Shown: in pieces, positions 15,100 to 29,768 of the stretch | Layout: each line of letters starts with the position of its first letter | Numbering within the stretch: the first letter of the stretch is position 1 | Assembly: GCA_035692745.1 (NCBI GenBank) | Contig: DASSHR010000322.1 | Coordinates: 1-46,794 of the forward strand | Source of the DNA: Candidatus Limnocylindrales bacterium | GTDB lineage: Bacteria > Chloroflexota > Limnocylindria > Limnocylindrales > CSP1-4 | Direction: 5' to 3' | DNA length: 46,794 bases | The notes under the pieces: model-generated | Database searches by the model: none | What the model saw: the letters and a program-made list of their open reading frames with translations, nothing else | What the model was told of the DNA's origin: nothing | Translations under genes and position numbers: made by a program

Positions 15100-16470
15100 G
15101 TGGTCGCGCGCCTCGCCCCGATCGAGCTGCCGGATTTCGGCGTCGCCGAGGTGCGGCCGGCGCTCCCGCCCGGGATCCACGCCGCCCGCCTGGAGCGGCT
15201 GCGGGCTGCCGCTGCCGAGCGGCGTCTCGACGTGCTGGTCCTGCCTGCGGATCGGGAGCACAGCGCGAACGTCAGCTGGCTGTCCGGCTTCGACCCGCGC
15301 TTCGAGGAGGCGATCGTGGTCGTGCGGCCGACCGGCCAGCCGACGATCCTCGTCGGCAATGAGTGCTGGGGCATCGCGGGTGACGCGCCGCTGCCGATGG
15401 ACCGGGTGCTCCACCAGGACCTGAGCCTGCCGAGCCAGCCGCGGGACCGGTCGCGGCCGCTCGCCGACGTGCTGCGCGACGCAGGCGTCGGGCCGGGCGC
15501 GCGCATCGGCGTCGTCGGCTGGAAGACGTACGCGGACCCGGCGTGGCTGGACGTGCCGGCCTACCTCGCGGATGTCGTTCGCGAGCTCGTCGGCGCTTCC
15601 GGGCACGTGGAGAACGCGGCCGGCCTCCTGATCGATGCCGGGACCGGCCTGCGCGTCGTCAACGAGGTCGACCAGCTGGCCGCCTTCGAGGCCGCGTCGA
15701 CGCGGACGTCCAGCGGCGTCCGCAACCTGCTGCGCAACCTCCGCCCCGGCCTTCGCGAGCGCGACGCGGTGGCCCTCCTCGGCTGGGACGGCTCGCCCCT
15801 GTCGTGCCACCTCATGCTCACCGCGGGGCCGCGCGCGCGGTTCGGCCTGTACAGCCCGGGCGACCGCCCGATGGACGCAGGCGACCCGTTCACCGCCGCG
15901 TTCGGCGTGTGGGGCGCGCTGAACTGCCGAGCCGGCTGGCTCGTCGACGATGCCGCCGCACTCCCGGAGGGCATCCGCGACTACGTCGATCGCCTCGTGG
16001 CGCCCTATTTCGCGGCCATCGCCGCGTGGTACGAGGCACTCCGCATCGGGCAGACCGGGGGCGCGCTCGACGCGATCATCGCCGAGCGGCTCGGCGATCC
16101 GTTCTTCGGGATCTTCCTGAATCCCGGCCACCAGATCTCGCTCGACGAGTGGGTGAACTCGCCGATCGGGCCGGGATCCACCACGGAGCTGCGGTCCGGC
16201 ATGTACCTCCAGGTCGACGTCATCCCGGCGACCGGAACGCCGTACTTCACGACGAACATCGAGGACGGGGTCGCACTCGCCGACGCATCGCTGCGGCGCG
16301 AGCTCGAGGCGCGCCACCCCGAGGCGTGGCAGCGCATCCAGCGACGGCGCGCGTTCATGGCCGACCAGCTCGGCATCGGGCTGCACCCGGACGTGCTGCC
16401 GTTCTCGAACATGCCCGCCTGGCTGCCGCCGTTCCTGCTCGACACCGGGCGGGCGATGTCGCTCGCCTGA
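15100..16470 (+). CDS. Creatinase/prolidase-fold (M24-like) protein
   Basis: Real part of ORF 14068..16470. The start is GTG 15100, or alternatively TTG 15082, which overlaps the upstream TGA as TTGA. N-terminal creatinase-like block LDVLVLPADREHSANVSWLSGFDPRFEEAIVVV; pita-bread-like C-terminal half (LNPGHQISLDEW, MYLQVDVIP, NIEDGVAL). Confidence 0.7.
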   Translation: MVARLAPIELPDFGVAEVRPALPPGIHAARLERLRAAAAERRLDVLVLPADREHSANVSWLSGFDPRFEEAIVVVRPTGQPTILVGNECWGIAGDAPLPMDRVLHQDLSLPSQPRDRSRPLADVLRDAGVGPGARIGVVGWKTYADPAWLDVPAYLADVVRELVGASGHVENAAGLLIDAGTGLRVVNEVDQLAAFEAASTRTSSGVRNLLRNLRPGLRERDAVALLGWDGSPLSCHLMLTAGPRARFGLYSPGDRPMDAGDPFTAAFGVWGALNCRAGWLVDDAAALPEGIRDYVDRLVAPYFAAIAAWYEALRIGQTGGALDAIIAERLGDPFFGIFLNPGHQISLDEWVNSPIGPGSTTELRSGMYLQVDVIPATGTPYFTTNIEDGVALADASLRRELEARHPEAWQRIQRRRAFMADQLGIGLHPDVLPFSNMPAWLPPFLLDTGRAMSLA

Positions 16471-16481
16471 GGCGCGATCCG

Positions 16482-18176
16482 ATGACCGCATCGACGCCGT
16501 CACGGAGGCCCCGCGCGCTGCTCCTCGGCCTCGGCGTGATCGTGGCCGTGGTTGCGATCGGGGGCGCCGCGACCGCGCTCGGGCTCGCGCCATGGTCGCC
16601 GGCAGCCACCGACGGCGTCCCGATCCCCCACTTCATCGATGAGACGGCCTCCTCCGGCGTCGACTTCACGTCGGGCGGCGACGTGACGTACTCGGTCGGC
16701 GGTGGGGTCGCCGTGTTCGACTGCAACGACGACGGCCGTGAGGACCTGTACCTCGCCGGCGGCACGGATCCCGCGGCCCTGTTCCGGAACGACAGCCCGA
16801 CCGGCGGTGCCCTGGCGTTCACGCGGCTGGCCGATCCGGCCACCGACCTCGACGCCGTGAACGGGGCCTACCCCATCGACGTCGACGGCGACCGCCGCAT
16901 CGACCTCGTCGTGCTCCGCAACGGCGAGAACGTCGTGCTCCGCGGCCTCGGTGACTGTCGGTTCGAGCGGGCCAACGAGCGCTGGGGGCTGGACGGCGGC
17001 GACGAGCTCACCGAGGCGTTCAGCGCGACGTGGGAGCCCGGCGCCACCTGGCCGATGGTCGCGTTCGGCAACTACGTGGACCCGACGCAGGACGATCCGT
17101 CGCGCTGGTGCGAGCCGAACCAGCTCGTTCGGCCGGCGGCGGGAGCAACGCCCGGGTTCGGAGATGGGCAGCCGCTCGACCCGAGCTGGTGCGCGCTGTC
17201 GATGCTGTTCAGCGACTGGGACGGGTCCGGCCGGATGGACCTGCGCATCAGCAACGACCAGCACTACTACCCCCCGGAGCTCGGCGAGGAGCAGCTCTGG
17301 CGCATCGAGCCCGGAGCCACCCCGCGGCTGTACACCCCCGACGATGGCTGGCGGCTCGTCCGGATCCAGGGCATGGGCATCGCCAGCCAGGACCTGACGG
17401 GCGACGGGCTGCCGGAGATCTACCTCACGAGCCAGGCGGCGAGCCGGCTCCAGACGCTGGCGTTGGGACCGTCGAAGCCGACATACATGGACATCGGATC
17501 CGCCCGCAACGTCAACGTGGCGCAGCCGTTCGCGGGCGGCGAGCACCTGCCGTCAACGGCCTGGCATCCCGAGTTCGAGGACGTGAACAACGACGGGCGG
17601 CTCGATCTCTTCGTGTCCAAGGGCAACGTGACGACCCAGCCGGACTACGCCCAGAAGGATCCGAGCAACCTCCTCCTCGGCCTACCCGACGGCACCTTCC
17701 GGGAGGTCGCGGACGTCGCCGGGATCCTGTCCTTCGACCGCGGGCGTGGCGCCGCCCTGGCCGATTTCAACCTCGACGGCTGGCTCGATCTCGTCGAGGT
17801 GAGCTACGGCGCGCCGGTCCGACTCTGGCGGGGCACCGGCACGGACGCGGCGCGCGGTGGCGGGCACCCGGGCCATTGGCTCGCGCTCCGCGTGCGCGAG
17901 GGCGGCCCGAACGTCGATGCCATCGGCGGCACGCTGGAGGTCCGGTTCGGCGACCAGGTGGTGCGGCACGAGCTCACGATCGGTGGCGGGCACGCCGGCG
18001 GCCAGCTCGGCTGGGTCCACGTCGGGCTCGGCGCCGCGACGAGCGCGGAGGCCCGCGTCCATTGGCCGGACGGGACCGACGGCCCGTGGCAGGCGCTCGG
18101 CGTGGATGGCTTCGCCGTGCTGGATCGTGATGCGCCCGGGCCGATTGCCTGGCAGCCCGGAGCTCCCCTGCCCTAG
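16482..18176 (+). CDS. CRTAC1-family protein: FG-GAP/VCBS repeats + ASPIC/UnbV C-terminal module, N-terminal signal anchor
   Basis: Real part of ORF 15543..18176 from ATG 16482 (MTASTPSRRPRALLLGLGVIVAVVAIGG...). Repeats: FDCNDDGREDLYLAG, IDVDGDRRIDLVVL, SDWDGSGRMDLRISN, QDLTGDGLPEIYLTS, EDVNNDGRLDLFVSKG, ADFNLDGWLDLVEVS. These are followed by GGTLEVRFGDQVVRHELTIGGGHAGGQ. Confidence 0.8.
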   Translation: MTASTPSRRPRALLLGLGVIVAVVAIGGAATALGLAPWSPAATDGVPIPHFIDETASSGVDFTSGGDVTYSVGGGVAVFDCNDDGREDLYLAGGTDPAALFRNDSPTGGALAFTRLADPATDLDAVNGAYPIDVDGDRRIDLVVLRNGENVVLRGLGDCRFERANERWGLDGGDELTEAFSATWEPGATWPMVAFGNYVDPTQDDPSRWCEPNQLVRPAAGATPGFGDGQPLDPSWCALSMLFSDWDGSGRMDLRISNDQHYYPPELGEEQLWRIEPGATPRLYTPDDGWRLVRIQGMGIASQDLTGDGLPEIYLTSQAASRLQTLALGPSKPTYMDIGSARNVNVAQPFAGGEHLPSTAWHPEFEDVNNDGRLDLFVSKGNVTTQPDYAQKDPSNLLLGLPDGTFREVADVAGILSFDRGRGAALADFNLDGWLDLVEVSYGAPVRLWRGTGTDAARGGGHPGHWLALRVREGGPNVDAIGGTLEVRFGDQVVRHELTIGGGHAGGQLGWVHVGLGAATSAEARVHWPDGTDGPWQALGVDGFAVLDRDAPGPIAWQPGAPLP

Positions 18177-19765
18177 GTCGTGCTCGGCGGGAGCACCGCG
18201 ACCAGCAGCCAGCGCTCGCCCGTCGCCCGCCGGACCGCGAACACCTCGTCGAACGGCGCCTCGGTCGTGGAAACCACCACCCCGGCGGCATCCCGGGTCT
18301 GGTCGGTCCGCGTGCCGGTCATGCGGAAGCCGAGGCTGAAGCCGTCCTGCTTCCCGAACGGGACGAGCAGCGAGACCGTCCCGGCGTCGAAGTCGTAGGT
18401 GGTGAGCACGGTCTGCCCGCTGGCATGGGCGTCGAGCAGTCGCTGCGTCATCTCGGCCAGGCGATCGCCGTGGTCGGCGACCGCGAGCAGCGAGCGATCG
18501 TCGTGCAGGAGCGCCTCGTTCTCGATCGCCAGGTTCTGCGCCAGGGTGATGAGGATGGCGTTGATGCCCGGGCCGGCGAACGACGGATCGAAATCGGTCA
18601 CGTCCTGGCCGACGGTGACCGGTGGCAGGGTCGATGGGTCGACCTGGCCGGGCAGCCGGTTCAGCACCTCCGCCGACACCGGCAGGGTCACGCCCCGGGC
18701 CGGCGTGCCGGCGACCACGATGCCGGTGCCCAGGATCGCCAGCGCCACGACGGCGGCCACGCCCGCGACACCGCGCCGCCCGGCGCTGGCGGCGGGATCG
18801 CCGCCGGTCGCGAGGCGGTCGGCGAAGGCTCGGAGCCGGTCGGCGGCCGATTTCGGCTCCGGCAGGACGCGCTCGAGGAGCGGTCGGGTCGCGCAGACCA
18901 CGACGAGACCGGAGAGCAGCCCGACCTTCGCCCCGAACTCGGTCGTCTGCGGCGCGATCAGGATCGTGCTGACCACCGCGACGAGGAAGCCGAACACGAC
19001 CCGTCCGACCCGGCCGCCGGGCACGGTCTTGGGATCCGTGATCATGAAGAACAGGAAGATCAGGATCTCCGGCGACGTCACGATCGAGCGCCAGAAGTCG
19101 ACGCCGCACACGGGTGCGAACGACCAGCGCGTGACCATGCAGTGCCCGGACGCGGCGAGCAGCCCGAGGCCCACCGCGAGGGTCCCCCAGAACGTCGCGG
19201 CGAGGATCAGCAGGTGCAGCCGCCGCGTGATCAGCACGCCGCCGACGAGGATTACCCCGTAGGCGAGGAGCATCGCCGGGTTGGTGATCGGCGCCCACCA
19301 GAAATCGAGCGGCTCCACTCGTGTCGAGCCAAGGATCACGAAGGTCAGCACGAGGCCCAGGTTGGCCGGGTTGAAGACGTGGGAGCCGCGGTAGCGGATG
19401 ACGTACTTCGAGAGGAGCGAGAGGCCGGCCACGCCGGCGAAGAGCCACCAGGCGTACGTGGTCCAGTGGTCCCCGGGCGCCGTCCCGACGACGCGCATGA
19501 TCAGGGCCACGGCGCTGCCGGTGAGCATCGCGCTCGCGGGCCACACGAAGGACTTCGTCTGCCAGAAGGTGATGCCCACCTCCAGCAGCCAGCAGATGCC
19601 GATCGCGGCGACGATCTGCGGCACGCTGACCCAGAAGCCCAGGCCCACCTGGCCGAGCAGGTGCACCGTGAGGACGACGATCGCGACGTGCAATCGCGGA
19701 TCGCGCACGTTCGGAAGGACGAGCGGATAGCTCCCCTGCCCGATGGTGACGGTCCGCGCGGTCAT
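18173..19765 (-). CDS. RnfD/NqrB-like polytopic membrane protein with extra TM helix and ~190-aa C-terminal extracytoplasmic-looking domain
   Basis: 530-aa clean ORF. Blocks SHVFNPANLGLV and FFMITDPKTVP resemble the FNPA and MxTDP blocks of the NQR2/RnfD/RnfE family. After about residue 330 there is the TM helix GVAGVAAVVALAILGTGIVVAG and then a soluble domain. A TATGAT -10-like hexamer (plus 19774-19779) lies 8 nt before the ATG. Confidence 0.65.
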   Translation of the reverse strand: MTARTVTIGQGSYPLVLPNVRDPRLHVAIVVLTVHLLGQVGLGFWVSVPQIVAAIGICWLLEVGITFWQTKSFVWPASAMLTGSAVALIMRVVGTAPGDHWTTYAWWLFAGVAGLSLLSKYVIRYRGSHVFNPANLGLVLTFVILGSTRVEPLDFWWAPITNPAMLLAYGVILVGGVLITRRLHLLILAATFWGTLAVGLGLLAASGHCMVTRWSFAPVCGVDFWRSIVTSPEILIFLFFMITDPKTVPGGRVGRVVFGFLVAVVSTILIAPQTTEFGAKVGLLSGLVVVCATRPLLERVLPEPKSAADRLRAFADRLATGGDPAASAGRRGVAGVAAVVALAILGTGIVVAGTPARGVTLPVSAEVLNRLPGQVDPSTLPPVTVGQDVTDFDPSFAGPGINAILITLAQNLAIENEALLHDDRSLLAVADHGDRLAEMTQRLLDAHASGQTVLTTYDFDAGTVSLLVPFGKQDGFSLGFRMTGTRTDQTRDAAGVVVSTTEAPFDEVFAVRRATGERWLLVAVLPPSTT

Positions 19766-20481: not shown

Positions 20482-20850
20482 ATGAACGAATCCGCCCGAG
20501 CCACCACCGCGCGAGAGCGTGACCGCGCCCTTCGTCGACTCCGTTCGATCACCACGGGCACGGCCGTCGTCGCGACGATGGCAACGGCCGGGTTCGGCAC
20601 GCTCGCCGCGTTCACGTGGTCGGGCGCGTCCACCGACGCGACCGCCGAGCAGGACGACACGGGCACGGTCACGACCGACACCACGATCACCACCGGCGTC
20701 GTCGGCGGCGACGAGGACGCCGACATGCTGCCCGACGCCGAGGCACCAGCGACCGCGGCGCCACAGACCGCGGCGCCACTCCAGCCGACGCCCACGCCGA
20801 TCGCGACCACGAAGCACAAGAGCCGCGTCACGAGCGGAGGCTCCGGGTGA
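20482..20850 (+). CDS. Small single-pass membrane protein with low-complexity Thr/Asp and Pro/Ala tail (no recognisable domain)
   Basis: ATG 20482 (MNESARATTARERD...), TM helix ITTGTAVVATMATAGFGTLAAF, C-terminus ...KHKSRVTSGGSG. Its TGA overlaps the GTG of apbE (GTGA 20847-20850), which argues that it is translated. Confidence 0.5.
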   Translation: MNESARATTARERDRALRRLRSITTGTAVVATMATAGFGTLAAFTWSGASTDATAEQDDTGTVTTDTTITTGVVGGDEDADMLPDAEAPATAAPQTAAPLQPTPTPIATTKHKSRVTSGGSG

Positions 20851-21791
20851 TCCGCTGGCGCGCGCTGGGCACGCATGTCGACCTGCTCGTCCATCGCGGC
20901 GACGCCCGCGTTGCACGCGCCGCGGTCGAGGCCGTCCTGGCGGACGTCGACCGGACATACAGCCGCTTTCGACCGGACAGCGAGCTCGTCGCACTCAACG
21001 CACGAGCCGGCACGACCGTTGAGCTGAGCCCGCTGCTCGCCCGCGCGATCGGGGTCGCAATCCGAGCCGCACGCCAGACCGACGGCCTGTGCGATCCCAC
21101 GATCGGGCGTGCGCTGCTGCGCATCGGCTACGACGCCGACTTCGCCGCGATCGCGGCGAGCAGCGCACCGATCGAGCTGCGCATGGAGCGCGTCGCCGGC
21201 TGGCGGTCCCTCCGGTTCGACGAGGCGGCGCGGACGTTGCGGGCGCCGGCCGGCGTGGCGATCGACCTCGGCTCGACCGGCAAGGCGCTTGCGGCCGATC
21301 TCGCGGCGGAGGCCGCCGTCGCGGCGATGGGTCGGGGCGGGGTGCTCGTCAGCCTGGGTGGCGACCTCGCCGTCGCCGGCGACGTGCCCGCGGACGGCTG
21401 GCCGGTCCTCGCCGCCGATGATTCGACGGCGCCAGCACGCCGCGGTGGCGAGGTCATCGCGATCCGGGACGGGGCCATCGCCACGTCGAGCACGACCGTT
21501 CGAACCTGGCGCCGCGCCTCGGTCGTCGTCCATCACCTCATCGATCCGCGCACCGGAATCCCGGCGCGCAGCCCGTGGCGGACCGTTTCGGTTGCCGCGG
21601 CCACCTGCGTCGATGCGAACGCCGCGGCCACGGCCGGGCTCATCCGGGGCACGGACGCGCCGGGCTGGCTCGAGGGCCTCGGCTTGGCGGCCCGACTCGT
21701 CACGCTCGAGGGCGAGATCGTGCGCGTCGGCGGCTGGCCGATGCCGGCATCCGCCGCGCCCGCGCCGACCTCCGCAGGACGTGCCGCGTGA
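20847..21791 (+). CDS. apbE: FAD:protein FMN transferase (ApbE family), no signal peptide visible
   Basis: Real part of ORF 20616..21791 from GTG 20847 (VIRWRALGTHVDLLV...). Blocks: RFRPDSELVALN, DPTIG, DLGSTGKALAADL, SLGGDLAV, TSSTTVRTW, HHLIDPRTG. Confidence 0.85.
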   Translation: MIRWRALGTHVDLLVHRGDARVARAAVEAVLADVDRTYSRFRPDSELVALNARAGTTVELSPLLARAIGVAIRAARQTDGLCDPTIGRALLRIGYDADFAAIAASSAPIELRMERVAGWRSLRFDEAARTLRAPAGVAIDLGSTGKALAADLAAEAAVAAMGRGGVLVSLGGDLAVAGDVPADGWPVLAADDSTAPARRGGEVIAIRDGAIATSSTTVRTWRRASVVVHHLIDPRTGIPARSPWRTVSVAAATCVDANAAATAGLIRGTDAPGWLEGLGLAARLVTLEGEIVRVGGWPMPASAAPAPTSAGRAA

Positions 21792-22372
21792 GCACCCAGC
21801 TGCTGTGGTTCGCGACGCGCGGCTCGGGCATCGTGTCGATGCTCCTGTTCAGCTTCGTCGTGGTCCTCGGCATCCTGACCACGATGCGCTGGCAGGCCTC
21901 CGGCTGGCCGCGCTTCCTCACCGCCGAGCTGCACCGGACCATCTCGCTGCTCTCGGTCGCGTTCATCGTCGCCCACATCGTCACGTCGATCCTCGACCCG
22001 TTCGCGAAGCTCGGCATCGAGGCGGCAATCATTCCCTTCGCGTCGTCGTACCGGCCGCTGTGGGTCGGGCTCGGGGTCCTGTCGATGGACATCGGGATCG
22101 CGCTGCTCGTGACCTCCCTGCTCAAGGCGCGGGTCGGCCAGCGCGCCTGGCGCGCCGTGCACTGGCTCGCCTATGCCGCGTGGCCGCTCGCGATCCTGCA
22201 CACGATCGGCTCCGGCAGCGACGGCGGGGCGAGCTGGATGTTCGCCATCGACGTCGTGTGCATCGGGTCGGTGTGCCTCGCGTTGATCTGGCGGATCCTC
22301 GCCGCGCGCGGCCCGAACACCGCCCTCCTCGAAGCGGTCGCGGATGGCGCTCGCGGGGCGGGCCGGCCATGA
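21788..22372 (+). CDS. Ferric-reductase-like transmembrane (dihaem b) domain protein
   Basis: GTG 21788 overlaps the apbE stop (GTGA). It has six predicted TM segments. The bis-His pairs H-x13-H (ELHRTISLLSVAFIVAH) and H-x12-H (AVHWLAYAAWPLAILH) match FRD/NOX/MsrQ-type domains. Confidence 0.8.
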   Translation: MSTQLLWFATRGSGIVSMLLFSFVVVLGILTTMRWQASGWPRFLTAELHRTISLLSVAFIVAHIVTSILDPFAKLGIEAAIIPFASSYRPLWVGLGVLSMDIGIALLVTSLLKARVGQRAWRAVHWLAYAAWPLAILHTIGSGSDGGASWMFAIDVVCIGSVCLALIWRILAARGPNTALLEAVADGARGAGRP

Positions 22373-22385
22373 GCGGCGGCCACCC

Positions 22386-23663
22386 GTGAGCGCCGTCCGT
22401 GTCCTGGCGGGGCCGCCGCTCGAGCGGGGCGCCGAGTCGTACCTCGAGCACGTCGCGCGGCTCGGCCCGCTGCCGCTGTCGCAGGCGCAACGCACGTTGA
22501 TCCCCGAGCTCGAGGCGAGCGGCCTGCTCGGCCGCGGTGGCGCGGGCTTTCCGGTCGGTCGGAAGTGGCGGTCGGTCGCGGAGCGAGCGCACGGACGGGG
22601 CGCGGTCGTGCTCGTCAATGGGGCCGAAGGCGAGCCGCTGTCCCACAAGGACCGCACGATCCTTGCCCTGCGCCCGAACCTCGTCCTCGATGGCGCGCAG
22701 CTTGCGGCCGAGGCCATCGGCGCGAACGAGATCGTGCTGTACGTCGGCGAGACCGCCGAGGCGGCCACCGATGCCCTCCAGCGCGCCGGCGCGGAACGTC
22801 GGGCGGCGGGCGCGGGCTCGAGGGTGCCGATTCGCATCGCCCGTGCGCCCGACCGCTACGTGGCCGGCGAGGAATCGGCCGCGGTCCGCTTCGTCAACGA
22901 GGGTGACGCACGACCCGTGACCACGCCGCCCCGGCCGTTCGAGCGCGGCGTCGCCGGCCTGCCCACCCTCGTGCAGAACGTCGAGAGCCTCGCGCACGCT
23001 GCCCTCATCGCGCGCAGCGGCGCGGACTGGTATCGCGCCGTCGGCGAGGGCGACGCGCGCGGCACGGCGCTCGTCACGGTCACGGCGCCGGGCGGCAGGC
23101 CGGTGGTTCGTGAGGTCGAGCTGGGTCGCACCATTGGGGAGGTCGCGCGGCTCGACGCGGCACGTCCCGGCGACGGCACGTCGGCGGCGACCGCCTCGGA
23201 TACCCAGGCGGTGCTGCTCGGCGGCTACTTCGGGCGCTGGATCGATGCCGGCACGGCGTGGGGCCTGCCGCTCAACCCGGACATCCTGCGACAGCACGGC
23301 CTGTCGATGGGCGCCGGCGTCGTCGCATTCCTGTCGACGTCGACGTGCCCGATCGTGGCGACCGCCCGCATCGCCGAGTACCTGGCGGCGCAGAGTGCGG
23401 CGCAATGCGGCCCGTGCGTGTTCGGGCTGCGGGCGATCGCGGACGCGGTGACCCGCCTCGCACGGCTCGAGGCACACCGGGAGGACTGGGCGAACGTCGA
23501 GCGCTGGGCCGCCCAGGTGAAGAACCGCGGCGCGTGCCGGCATCCGGACGGGGCGGTGGGTTTGCTCGAAAGCGCGCTCGTGACGTTCGAGGGCGAGCTG
23601 GAGCGGCACTGGCATCGGCGCGGCTGCTCCTTCTCGGCCGGCGTCCGCAGCCGGGCTGCGTGA
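22386..23663 (+). CDS. NuoF-like NAD(P)H-oxidising flavo-iron-sulfur protein (stand-alone)
   Basis: ORF 22344..23663; start GTG 22386 (alt ATG 22344 would overlap the FRD gene). Blocks: GRGGAGFPVGRKW, NGAEGEPLSHKDR. Cys ligands: QCGPCVFG and GACRHPDG. Confidence 0.8.
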   Translation: MSAVRVLAGPPLERGAESYLEHVARLGPLPLSQAQRTLIPELEASGLLGRGGAGFPVGRKWRSVAERAHGRGAVVLVNGAEGEPLSHKDRTILALRPNLVLDGAQLAAEAIGANEIVLYVGETAEAATDALQRAGAERRAAGAGSRVPIRIARAPDRYVAGEESAAVRFVNEGDARPVTTPPRPFERGVAGLPTLVQNVESLAHAALIARSGADWYRAVGEGDARGTALVTVTAPGGRPVVREVELGRTIGEVARLDAARPGDGTSAATASDTQAVLLGGYFGRWIDAGTAWGLPLNPDILRQHGLSMGAGVVAFLSTSTCPIVATARIAEYLAAQSAAQCGPCVFGLRAIADAVTRLARLEAHREDWANVERWAAQVKNRGACRHPDGAVGLLESALVTFEGELERHWHRRGCSFSAGVRSRAA

Positions 23664-23920
23664 TGGCGACGTCGACGAAGACGCAGATGCCGCCGGCGCA
23701 CGGCAGGCCGCTGGCGCAGGGCGAGACCCGCCTCGAGGTGGATCGCATCCTGTGCGACGGCTATGGCATGTGCGCGGAGCTGCTGCCCGAGCTCATCGAC
23801 CTCGACGACTGGGGCTACCCGATCGTCCACTCGCACGTGCCACGGCAGCTCGAACGGGTTGCCCGCCGGGCGGTCGACGTGTGCCCCGTGCTCGCCCTCC
23901 GGTTGCGATCCGGCCGCTGA
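23663..23920 (+). CDS. Single-cluster ferredoxin (C-x5-C...CP type)
   Basis: ATG 23663 overlaps the preceding TGA (TGATG). Sequence: ILCDGYGMCAELLPELIDLDDWGYP...VDVCPVLAL. Confidence 0.8.
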   Translation: MATSTKTQMPPAHGRPLAQGETRLEVDRILCDGYGMCAELLPELIDLDDWGYPIVHSHVPRQLERVARRAVDVCPVLALRLRSGR

Positions 23921-25462: not shown

Positions 25463-25741
25463 ATGCCCGGCATGCCCGGCTACGACCTCCTCGGCTGGAT
25501 CGTCATCGGCCTGCTCGCAGGCTCGATCTCGGGCTGGTTCGTGCGCGGCACCCACAGCGTGCAGGGCTGCCTGCCGACCATCGTCGTCGGGATCCTCGGC
25601 GCGATCGTGGGCGGCTGGATCGTGCGCAGCATCGGCAACGACCCGGCGCAGGGCTTCTTTGGGGCCTTGGTGTTCGCGATCATCGGCTCGGTGGTCGTGC
25701 GAATCGTGCTCCGGGCGATCGAGGGCGGCGGGCGCCGCTGA
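25463..25741 (+). CDS. GlsB/YeaQ/YmgE-family small membrane protein
   Basis: Tail of ORF 25178..25741; start ATG 25463 or 25472. Sequence: LLGWIVIGLLAGSISGWFV...VGILGAIVGGWIV...GALVFAIIGSVVV. Confidence 0.8.
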   Translation: MPGMPGYDLLGWIVIGLLAGSISGWFVRGTHSVQGCLPTIVVGILGAIVGGWIVRSIGNDPAQGFFGALVFAIIGSVVVRIVLRAIEGGGRR

Positions 25742-26476
25742 TCAGCGCCAGTCGATCGTGACGACCTCCACCGGCTCGGAGAACCCCTTCAGGACCTCCC
25801 GCCGCGGCGCGGAGGTCGGATAGGCGTCACCCGCCGTCGCGACGCTCGCGACGATCTCGTTGCCGCCGGCGATCGACGCGATCCGCGACGCCTCGTGGAC
25901 GCCGCGGCCCCGGAAGTTCTCGCCGACCTGGTTCGCGTCGGCGGCGTGGATCCCGATCCGGATGGGCGGCGCGAAGCCCGCCTTCTGGCGATGCTCTGCC
26001 AGCCGGCGCTGGATGGCGACCGCGGCCGCAACCGCCTGCTCCGGCGAGTCGAAGCCGACGAAGAACCCGTCGCCCGTCGTCGAGATCTCCTTGCCCTGGT
26101 GCGCGCTGAACACCTCGCGCAGGGTCGCGTCGTGCCAGCGGAGAAGCGTGTCCCACGCCTCGTCGCCCATGACCTCGACGAGGTTCGTGGAGCCAACGAC
26201 GTCGGTGAACATGAACGTCTTGAGCACGCGCCGCTTCGGCTCGGCCCTGCCCCGCAGCTGCCACGGCAGGAGCTCGGTGACCTGCTCGATCACGATCGCG
26301 GCCGTTGGGCAGGCGAAGGCCGCCTCCTGCAGCAGGTCGTCCTCGACGGTGTCCGTGCCGATCACGTCGGCCTTGCCGAAGTCGCCCTTCAGCCAGTCGA
26401 ACGCCGTGGGGGCCAGCGTGATGCAGTTGCCCGCGCCGATGCACTTGTGCCGATCGACGCGGACGACGAGCGGCAT
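25742..26476 (-). CDS. Ferredoxin-domain / class III nucleotidyl (adenylate/guanylate) cyclase fusion protein
   Basis: Real part of ORF 25742..27403 from ATG 26476 (MPLVVRVDRHKCIGAGNCITLAP...AFACPTAAIVIE). The cyclase core follows: FMFTDVVGSTNL, TTGDGFFVGF, IRIGIHAADA, RGRGVHEASRI. Confidence 0.8.
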   Translation of the reverse strand: MPLVVRVDRHKCIGAGNCITLAPTAFDWLKGDFGKADVIGTDTVEDDLLQEAAFACPTAAIVIEQVTELLPWQLRGRAEPKRRVLKTFMFTDVVGSTNLVEVMGDEAWDTLLRWHDATLREVFSAHQGKEISTTGDGFFVGFDSPEQAVAAAVAIQRRLAEHRQKAGFAPPIRIGIHAADANQVGENFRGRGVHEASRIASIAGGNEIVASVATAGDAYPTSAPRREVLKGFSEPVEVVTIDWR

Positions 26477-29400: not shown

Positions 29401-29768
29401 GCCCGTGATCCGACCGCGAGCTCGCGGGTCGCGCCGTTCCCGAACAGCGATCGCGCGACGAGGAACGGGCCGCGGATCTCCTCGTCCGCGGTGATCGCGA
29501 CCGTCGTGAACCCGGCAGCCTCGGCCATCTCGGCGGCGGCGACGAGGAGCCGGGTCTTGCCGATGCCCGGCTCGCCCTCGAGGGTCACGGCGGCAAGGCG
29601 GGTGCGGGCTTCCCGGATCGCGTGCTCGATCGCCGCGAGCTCCGTGCTCCGGCCGACGATCGAACCGGTGGCACGCCGGAGCTGTACCGACAGCGAGCAC
29701 TGCGGCTGGACCAGCGGGTCCAGCGCATCGCCGTCGAGGAGGCGCACGGGGCCGGCTTCTGCAACCAT
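26487..29768 (-). CDS. Large ATP-binding LuxR-family regulator (LAL/MalT-like: AAA/STAND-type NTPase + helical repeats + LuxR HTH)
   Basis: ORF 26487..30056 trimmed to ATG 29768 (MVAEAGPVRLL...IVGRSTELAAI). Walker A GEPGIGKTRL, Walker B-like ALLLDDVQWAD, a roughly 700-aa TPR-like helical region, and the C-terminal HTH LTEGLTNREMAARLGVDEATVSGRLADLM. The stop lies 10 nt before the cyclase start. Confidence 0.85.
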   Translation of the reverse strand: MVAEAGPVRLLDGDALDPLVQPQCSLSVQLRRATGSIVGRSTELAAIEHAIREARTRLAAVTLEGEPGIGKTRLLVAAAEMAEAAGFTTVAITADEEIRGPFLVARSLFGNGATRELAVGSRAEVPVRRVADALAGRDEPGFEHLSPEAKLLRTFDLAGIAIQELAAVKPIALLLDDVQWADDDTLRLLRYAVRSVGDRPVFLFLTFRTDELAKNTEATNFLADMERMGLVRRLRVSRFGATETGLLLRQVLGGPVDGQSIAAMHAQSEGVPFIVEELAQAHREAGTLQQVGGEWRLGRNAARLVPSAVRTLISRRAARLPAPALALLGEAAVLGRSFSVRDLVAIGGADRTPDGIAAALAPAVEAGLLLAHPQGDAADYTFSHEQVRDFANAQLANARRREVHGRVVDLLLEAGEPPAEGLPMLAQHALAAGDNTRAARFSIDAAAAALRSNAPEEALRLVDAALPVVTSPAERRVLLATRDDAYAALRRTSDRIEGLAELGALAEALREPALELDVQLRRAAALRAAHDEDAAAELARRVIARAAELGDPATELRATLELGQALSRTELGDSFGVSTVEVDADGAEAAFRRAAELAEQLGDERALAASLREVGSLVVSRLRTTFVNDLVRTGEWMGVTRRLQAGETLEAVVGDLPLGKLVAEGGALLERALAIFERLDDRSGVMSTVIAMAYLRYAPLIHLSNSVRHLEEIKRVIARQAVLVTESERAAQELHLLYGIQVYGLGKQLPDAATSRGEEAYRAARLLGRQDVQFSAAKGVALAELQLGDVDAAERWIDAAAEVASALPTPARTRQLALLRGRARAAAGDVPGTRAQLERAVELAEGQGRPAARCEALTRLAVEAARLGAERQDDELLGLAERSAGAAKALLAQLPGQPAWGSECDAALATVHLARGDVDGAVAAAFAAVQALEAGQHEDVYPDVVLPAGRILLEAGPPEAQEFVRGYLQIILARSVQGILDESVRVRWLRGPIGSRFVALAGEPPAAGTGDRSGGPTSGLSDDDRALVFLLTEGLTNREMAARLGVDEATVSGRLADLMVTMGATDRAHATTLAMRGLGASLPVGGGQGLAPA

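Follow-up and report, generated by a model that had tools for sequence, protein, structure and literature searches.

A stretch of 46,794 nucleotides (nt) from a Candidatus Limnocylindrales bacterium, referred to here as the window, was analysed around a gene encoding a ferredoxin-cyclase, in which a single-cluster ferredoxin domain is fused to a nucleotide cyclase domain of class III. The gene is the second of a conserved two-gene operon, whose first gene encodes a LAL/STAND-type transcription regulator. The analysis established what the domains are, that the ligand and catalytic residues are all conserved, that the two genes are linked in two phyla and that single-chain relatives with the same domain order exist. 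We propose, with moderate confidence and on the basis of comparisons of sequences, that the protein would be a redox- or cluster-gated cyclic nucleotide (cNMP) cyclase that works with the STAND transcription factor and is probably bound to it. If this model holds, the pair would couple both cyclic-nucleotide signalling and a large transcription factor of the STAND type to the redox or iron-sulfur status of the cytoplasm. The hosts belong to abundant uncultured soil lineages, namely Candidatus Limnocylindria, other Chloroflexota, and Gaiellales- and Solirubrobacterales-like Actinomycetota.

Domain Architecture of the Ferredoxin-Cyclase

The open reading frame (ORF) starts with an ATG at 26476 and ends with a stop codon at 25742-25744 on the minus strand. 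In Pfam, residues 7-61 of the 244-aa (amino acid) product matched Fer4_13 (E 5.6e-9, 37.0 bits against a cut-off of 24.5), residues 5-63 matched Fer4_15 (E 6.1e-9, 36.9 bits against 22.4), and residues 87-208 matched Guanylate_cyc (PF00211; E 3.5e-7, 30.4 bits against 21.9). When PDB sequences were compared, residues 4-65 matched the single-cluster ferredoxin of Thermotoga maritima; the nearest sequence was the cyclase domain of Ma1120 from Mycobacterium avium (residues 76-233, E 3.9e-21), and that of Rv1900c from Mycobacterium tuberculosis matched residues 82-217 (E 1.6e-18). An AlphaFold model was built on 52 homologues, with predicted local distance difference test (pLDDT) values of about 75-95 in the cyclase domain. 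The top Foldseek matches of this model were again Ma1120 and Rv1900c, with template modelling scores relative to the target of 0.76-0.88 and 0.76-0.80, respectively.

A search of 5.8 billion clustered proteins returned 2296 matches. The best 120 were examined and were 243-248 aa long and 76-100% identical, with the same two-domain architecture throughout; the family proteins are mostly metagenomic, and the sole names attached to them are automatic ("class 3 adenylate cyclase"). The family alignment comprised 199 sequences, including 79 members translated from genomic loci (225-247 aa). Because these homologues share length and architecture, the fusion is judged not to be a chance match. A first-pass annotation of the window had already proposed it, and the ORF, the Pfam and PDB matches and the 199 homologues all bear that proposal out. 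The pattern of residue conservation across the alignment indicates purifying selection on both the cluster-binding site and the catalytic site.

The Upstream Regulator and the Two-Gene Operon

The most informative feature of the locus, missed in the first-pass annotation, is the obligate partner gene upstream, which encodes a LAL/STAND-LuxR regulator and whose stop codon lies 10 nt before the cyclase ATG on the same strand. As in LAL/MalT-like STAND proteins, the regulator has an N-terminal P-loop nucleoside triphosphatase (NTPase) domain of the AAA_16 family, followed by a long middle region and a C-terminal helix-turn-helix of the LuxR/GerE type. The AAA_16 match reached 56.9 bits (cut-off 32.6), and both Walker motifs are present (A, GEPGIGKT; B, LLLDDVQWAD). 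GerE scored 21.6 bits in the full-length regulator, just under the cut-off of 23.5, but it reached 25.4 bits when only the C-terminal 150 aa were searched, and six orthologues gave 28.5-43.7 bits. In the regulator of the window no match to a TPR family attained E 0.01 in Pfam; TPR_12 and TPR_MalT were present in the fused relatives described below.

One genome per GTDB species was searched. A relative of the ferredoxin-cyclase was encoded in 190 stretches, and the best 80 loci, all of them from metagenome-assembled genomes, were analysed. The C-terminus of the regulator was directly upstream, on the same strand, in 79 of the 79 loci with upstream sequence; the 80th has only 184 nt upstream. 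The gap between both genes was from -4 to +45 nt in 74 of these 79 loci, and its commonest form was an overlapping TGATG; the operon is probably translationally coupled. An unbiased clustering of all neighbouring ORFs recovered the regulator in 76 of the 80 loci and no conserved third gene, other clusters being common to at most 13 loci. The conserved unit is the two-gene operon, with the regulator gene first and the ferredoxin-cyclase gene second.

The regulator likely starts at the Met at 29768 (M97 of the longest ORF), since the orthologue alignments begin near residue 100 of that ORF. The longest ORF, which extends to 30056, carries a spurious N-terminal extension of about 96 residues that overlaps a divergent Rieske/VanA_C oxygenase gene, whose start is either 29779 or 29809. 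If the regulator begins at 29768, as is likely, only about 10-40 nt separate the two divergent genes, and the promoters must then sit inside coding sequence. A sigma-70 promoter scan around the operon gave no promoter-like site, and an intrinsic terminator scan picked up a single terminator-like site, which lies within the gene of the regulator and is at chance level. At the other end of the operon, the stop codon of a convergent gene for a Transgly_assoc (GlsB/YeaQ-like) membrane protein (TGA, 25739-25741) abuts that of the cyclase (TCA on the plus strand, 25742-25744), which leaves no space for a terminator between these genes. Coordinates and supporting evidence are given in Table 1.

Table 1. 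Features of the ferredoxin-cyclase operon in the window and domain architectures of related multidomain proteins.
Feature	Position	Strand	Evidence
Ferredoxin-cyclase gene	25742..26476	minus	ORF and translation; 244 aa and stop
Single-cluster ferredoxin domain, aa 5-65	26282..26464	minus	Pfam; aligned with the ferredoxins of T. maritima, P. furiosus and R. palustris
Linker LLPWQLRG, aa 69-76, joining ferredoxin and cyclase domains	26249..26272	minus	Kept in at least 97% of the 199 aligned sequences
Class III cyclase homology domain, aa 87-244	25745..26218	minus	Pfam, PDB alignments, AlphaFold, Foldseek, conservation
His194 codon, canonical Asn transition-state position	25895..25897	minus	Four residues before R198
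LAL/STAND-type regulator, ~1093 aa	26487..29768	minus	Pfam, motif positions, orthologue alignment
P0235, P0147, P0225: AAA_16-(TPR)-GerE-cyclase, one chain			Pfam
P0206: AAA_16-TPR-GerE, cyclase match at residues 1036-1200			Cyclase match from HMMER scan
P0134, P0135, P0137, P0140, P0146: MalT-TPR-cyclase			Pfam
P0128: SARP (Trans_reg_C and BTAD)-cyclase			Pfam
P0132: BTAD-AAA_16-cyclase			Pfam
P0133: FHA-FtsK/SpoIIIE-cyclase			Pfam

Single-Chain Relatives

HMMER was run exhaustively against 1.84 billion representatives and yielded 40,245 relatives (E up to 1e-3). Outside the family, the nearest cyclase domains share 50-60% identity over residues ~77-244 and, among those scanned, are placed at the C-terminus of multidomain proteins. 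Pfam searches on 60 such proteins identified AAA_16 in 17, TPR_12 in 22, TPR_MalT in 12, GerE in 8 and BTAD in 2 of them. In P0235, P0147, P0206 and P0225 the order of the domains is the order of the genes in the operon, and their cyclase domains are 52-55% identical to that of the window, with His at the Asn position. They come from metagenomes and differ from the pair in the window in being single chains without a ferredoxin domain; they are also uncharacterised, and the sole name that the source gives this group, "class 3 adenylate cyclase/TPR repeat protein", was assigned automatically. In the long fused relatives, the N-terminal NTPase regions are homologous to the regulator of the window (E 1e-18 to 3e-30), and P0235 could be aligned, weakly, over almost the whole length of that regulator.

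By the classic fusion argument, the agreement between domain order and gene order suggests that regulator and cyclase act together. The NTPase region of the regulator also resembles the NTPase part of the NCBIfam model "TOMM system kinase/cyclase fusion protein", with E 8.9e-34 but a score under the cut-off of that family, which points the same way.

Four further proteins (P0122, P0124, P0126 and P0129) join the C-terminal end of a regulator to a ferredoxin-cyclase. Their catalytic columns are short, garbled or partly missing, and they were rejected as true three-part fusions and treated as artefacts of frameshifts or of gene calling where the stop and start codons overlap. Additionally, P0128, P0132 and P0133 show unusual cyclase architectures among the close relatives.

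Ferredoxin Domain and Linker

The ferredoxin domain has three cysteines only, arranged as C12-I-G-A15-G-N-C18 ... C56-P57. The description in the first-pass annotation (C-x5-C...CP) had to be amended: Ala15 occupies the second-Cys position of the motif CIGCGVC in the T. maritima [4Fe-4S] ferredoxin. At the same position of the alignment, the ferredoxin of Pyrococcus furiosus has Asp and that of Rhodopseudomonas palustris (4ID8) has His. The motif CxxA/GxxC(x)nCP is that of [3Fe-4S] ferredoxins (PMC6237146), and the domain conforms to it. Across the family alignment C18, P23, C56 and P57 are invariant (199/199), while C12 and A15 are present in 198 of the 199 sequences. Because the three cysteines and the CP pair are invariant or nearly so across two phyla, the domain most likely binds a cluster, predicted to be a single [3Fe-4S] cluster held by C12, C18 and C56. 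The linker LLPWQLRG, which follows the ferredoxin domain, is without variation in alignment A1.

The window also encodes a stand-alone ferredoxin at 23663-23920, which had been taken for the same type as the fused domain. Both belong to Fer4_15, but the stand-alone protein has the motif CxxYxxC...CP and its pairwise similarity to the fused domain is weak (10/23 identities, E 7e-4).

Cyclase Domain

The metal aspartates noted in the first-pass annotation are D92 (FMFTD) and D136 (TGDG), which align with those of Ma1120 and Rv1900c. Both are invariant in the 199 sequences, as are G190, G192, H194, A196 and R198. Of the Asn-Arg transition-state pair of class III cyclases, the arginine is retained as R198 and the asparagine is replaced by H194, as had been recognised. 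K230-G231, conserved in the family, matches the usual late Lys-Gly of these enzymes, which has a role in phosphate binding.

The histidine had been regarded as a peculiarity and a possible sign of altered catalysis, and this part of the first-pass annotation did not hold. His occupies the Asn column in 133 of the 150 nearest cyclase representatives, almost all of which retain the Arg. H194 shares an alignment column with the His of Rv1900c and Ala164 of Ma1120. In Rv1900c, His stands in place of the Asn, and the enzyme is active as an adenylyl cyclase, with some activity as a guanylyl cyclase (PMC4886424); the assignment of this His relies on the alignment made here and on that secondary source. 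In Ma1120 the change A164N drastically cuts or abolishes activity (PMC4215837). Since His is the norm of the clade, and Rv1900c is active with His and Ma1120 with Ala, His194 is best read as a clade character that gives no ground to suspect altered catalysis. From these comparisons, the enzyme is assigned to the homodimer-type class III cyclases, in the Rv1900c/Ma1120-like branch with a short arm region and His for Asn, and is predicted to be soluble.

The base-pocket positions are occupied by Ser132 and Asn187, which form neither the ATP pair (Lys/Asp) nor the GTP pair (Glu/Cys-type). Position 132 is Ser in 143 and Val in 41 of the 199 sequences, and position 187 is Asn in 169 and Asp in 18. 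In the wider His-type clade (P0127-P0270), the commonest base-pocket pair is Asp/Gly (31/150), followed by Lys/Asp (26). The combination of an acidic residue and Gly resembles the Glu/Gly pair of the cyanobacterial guanylyl cyclase Cya2 (PMC4215837), and by this analogy part of the His-type clade might not make cyclic AMP (cAMP).

Distribution of the Family

According to the record labels, the best 80 of the 190 loci comprise about 29 from Chloroflexota, about 47 from Actinomycetota and 4 others. The nearest of them belong to Candidatus Limnocylindrales, with 92% identity, and one of these, locus L001, is syntenic with the window at positions 18-34 kb. The G+C content of the window is 72%, and its most likely source is a Limnocylindrales genome from soil.

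Full-length members were also found on contigs labelled Patescibacteria, Eisenbacteria, Dormiibacterota and Planctomycetaceae (loci L005, L009, L035 and L044). As these are 66-83% identical to the protein of the window and have the same regulator upstream, and the family otherwise occurs on contigs of Chloroflexota and Actinomycetota, the labels may reflect binning errors and not the true distribution.

Comparison with Known Systems

The first-pass annotation knew of no characterised ferredoxin-cyclase fusion. An Fe-S-linked class III cyclase is, however, known in principle. CyaC of Sinorhizobium meliloti is a redox-regulated cyclase of the membrane that carries two hemes b as well as a [2Fe-2S] cluster; oxidised quinones activate it, and it forms a complex with the regulators Clr and CycR (PMC10463352, citing Wissig 2019). 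Additionally, a cluster of about 30 class IIIb cyclases from proteobacteria has been catalogued in which a ferredoxin separates the catalytic domain from the membrane anchor (PMC4821796). In CyaC and in these ferredoxin-linked enzymes (e.g., UniProt Q132R4), as in the protein of the window, an Fe-S module directly precedes a class III cyclase domain. CyaC is thus a characterised precedent for an Fe-S redox-regulated cyclase complexed with transcription regulators.

The architecture is different. CyaC has a diheme-B anchor of six transmembrane helices, a [2Fe-2S] cluster and a class IIIb catalytic domain, and occurs in alpha- and betaproteobacteria, whereas the protein studied here appears soluble, with a three-Cys motif of the 3Fe/4Fe type and an Rv1900c-like cyclase domain. 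A membrane anchor is excluded because the protein has 244 aa, only four of which precede the ferredoxin domain. No 2Fe-2S family was matched by the ferredoxin domain in Pfam or in the PDB sequence comparison; it matches 3Fe/4Fe single-cluster families, and identity with a CyaC-type enzyme was rejected. The pairing with a STAND-LuxR regulator further sets it apart from CyaC.

Rv1900c (1YBT/1YBU) and Ma1120 (4WP3) are the nearest solved cyclase domains by sequence and by fold, and share with the protein of the window a compact domain, both metal aspartates and the arginine. The base pocket differs: it holds Ser/Asn in the protein of the window and Lys/Asp in Ma1120 (PMC4215837), and the alignment shows Asn and Asp at the corresponding positions of Rv1900c. 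The N-terminus of Rv1900c (LipJ) is an alpha/beta-hydrolase domain in the place where the window protein has a ferredoxin. The NCBIfam model for LipJ (NF058673) matched in the cyclase part only (model positions 270-416), with 94.9 bits against a cut-off of 800. With the full-length lipase and cyclase match so far below the cut-off, the protein was rejected as a LipJ/Rv1900c orthologue.

The Mclx proteins (Rv0386, Rv1358 and Rv2488c) also combine a class III cyclase with an AAA/NB-ARC-type NTPase and a LuxR helix-turn-helix (PMC4452763; PMC3466318). They are single chains with an N-terminal cyclase and no ferredoxin, whereas in the window a separate cyclase carrying a ferredoxin is encoded after the LuxR domain, in a second gene; judged by these descriptions, a protein of the Mclx type was rejected. 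The N-terminal domain shares Pfam families, motif and size with the P450-associated Fdx of Mycobacterium marinum and with R. palustris 4ID8 (PMC6237146). Single-cluster [3Fe-4S] ferredoxins of this kind are free-standing electron carriers beside P450 genes; the domain studied here is attached to a signalling enzyme, and clustering of the ORFs of the 80 loci gave no P450 as a conserved neighbour.

What is new in combination is, above all, the obligate STAND-LuxR partner, together with the soluble three-Cys form and a catalytic branch like that of Rv1900c. No account of a soluble ferredoxin-cyclase of the Fer4 type, or of such a protein paired with a LAL regulator, was found in the literature, although coverage was incomplete and this is weak evidence. 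The components are individually familiar, and the module is a well-defined, testable signalling unit.

Proposed Mechanism and Alternative Explanations

In the proposed mechanism, the redox state or the integrity of the cluster would pass through the LLPWQLRG linker and set the activity of the cyclase dimer. The product would most probably be cAMP, taken as the default, with a loose or different base specificity being possible. The cyclase would be in complex with the STAND regulator, and the redox signal would, together with the ATP- or ligand-driven oligomerisation of the regulator, control cNMP production and LuxR-dependent transcription. As class III cyclases need two domains per active site and STAND proteins oligomerise on activation, two coupling models may be considered: the regulator could drive the assembly of cyclase dimers, or the cNMP made locally could be the ligand of the regulator. 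More tentatively, the ferredoxin-cyclase and the LAL regulator might form a physical sensor-regulator complex, in which the redox state of the [3Fe-4S] cluster acts through the cyclase domain to control the STAND factor. On a wider view, the cyclase domains of the whole His-type clade might serve STAND, MalT-like and SARP regulators as in-built modules, either effectors or co-sensors.

An Fe-S-gated cNMP signal had also been suggested in the first-pass annotation. The architecture on which the suggestion was built is real and conserved, and gating is still the most plausible reading, but two of its premises, the anomalous histidine and the novelty of an Fe-S cyclase, were not sustained. Several observations weigh against the mechanism. 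Electron transport, not sensing, is the usual role of [3Fe-4S] ferredoxins, and the AlphaFold model is not confident in the ferredoxin domain and the linker (pLDDT <50). The base-pocket positions are non-canonical and variable, and the substrate is not readable from them. Contact between the two proteins is a step that we infer. No cNMP-binding protein is encoded in the 46,794 nt of the window, and no conserved operator was detected upstream of the regulator gene, where enrichment of 8-mers and 10-mers in 55 regions gave none above shuffled controls. The family itself is common in uncultured soil bacteria and has no characterised member.

Other explanations were also considered. The ferredoxin-cyclase might instead be an autonomous redox-gated cyclase, as in the first-pass annotation, whose cNMP goes to a global receptor elsewhere in the genome while the regulator only controls the expression of the operon. 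The same domain and residue evidence would fit, but the strict adjacency in 79/79 loci of two phyla, the stop/start overlaps and the single-chain regulator-cyclase relatives argue for a closer unit than mere co-expression, and we consider this explanation unlikely. A similarly low probability is given to a pseudo-enzyme, in which the cyclase-like domain binds nucleotide or dimerises as a regulatory subunit of the LAL regulator and makes no cNMP. The non-canonical base pocket and the His for Asn are compatible with it, and a purely regulatory role has been suggested for Rv1358 and Rv2488c, which are without some canonical residues (PMC4452763). Yet none of the 199 sequences departs from the two metal aspartates, R198 or H194, and K230-G231 is conserved as well; moreover, His is the clade norm and is found in the active Rv1900c (PMC4886424), and Ma1120 is active with Ala (PMC4215837).

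The ferredoxin domain could also have a role other than sensing, either as an electron-transfer module for another reaction or as a cluster-free structural or docking tether to the regulator. Ferredoxins of the CxxAxxC...CP types are typically P450 electron carriers (PMC6237146), and the fused relatives tether the cyclase covalently after LuxR, so that a split system would need a docking element. Against a tether free of cluster, the near invariance of the three cysteines and CP across two phyla argues for a bound cluster; against a carrier, neither a P450 nor a reductase is present among the conserved neighbours of the 80 loci, and a carrier fused to a signalling enzyme would have no obvious acceptor. 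This role is improbable on balance. Much less probable still is an anti-phage module, composed of a Pycsar-like pyrimidine cyclase and an Avs-like STAND NTPase. STAND NTPases are frequent in defence systems, and PADLOC gave a weak match of the cyclase domain to PycC (E 1e-5, 23 bits). However, the PycC models score 19-23 bits in the cyclase domain only, and the regulator matches no defence STAND model of PADLOC and has a LuxR DNA-binding domain as its output. No cNMP-activated effector was adjacent or conserved nearby in the clustering of neighbouring ORFs, and the neighbouring genes of the window are ordinary; the defence (Pycsar) reading was rejected.

Returning to the gated cyclase paired with its STAND regulator, the 244-aa protein would be a compact candidate for a redox-switchable cNMP generator. 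If the model holds, the pair would offer a small soluble system for what a cyclase does on an NTPase-LuxR regulator, a question left open for the Rv0386 family.

Genomic Context

Otherwise the operon is surrounded by ordinary genes for metabolism and transport. A run of redox genes is located at 20616-23920 on the plus strand, with 18173-19765 on the minus strand. Its products are an ApbE flavin transferase, a membrane protein resembling ferric reductases (PF01794), an FMN/4Fe-4S protein similar to NuoF and the CxxYxxC...CP ferredoxin mentioned above, and near it there is a membrane protein weakly similar to NQR2/RnfD. The run may be a membrane-associated NADH-linked electron-transfer set. A gene for a BBE-type FAD oxidase is also near the cyclase in the window. 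The ApbE, ferric-reductase-like, NuoF-like, ferredoxin and BBE oxidase genes are kept only in the nearest Limnocylindrales relatives (L001), and for this reason the redox genes were rejected as part of the cyclase module.

An ORF of 877 aa at 15543-18176 on the plus strand contains FG-GAP-like repeats and an ASPIC/UnbV domain, and fills a 3-kb stretch where the codon-bias filter had given no gene.

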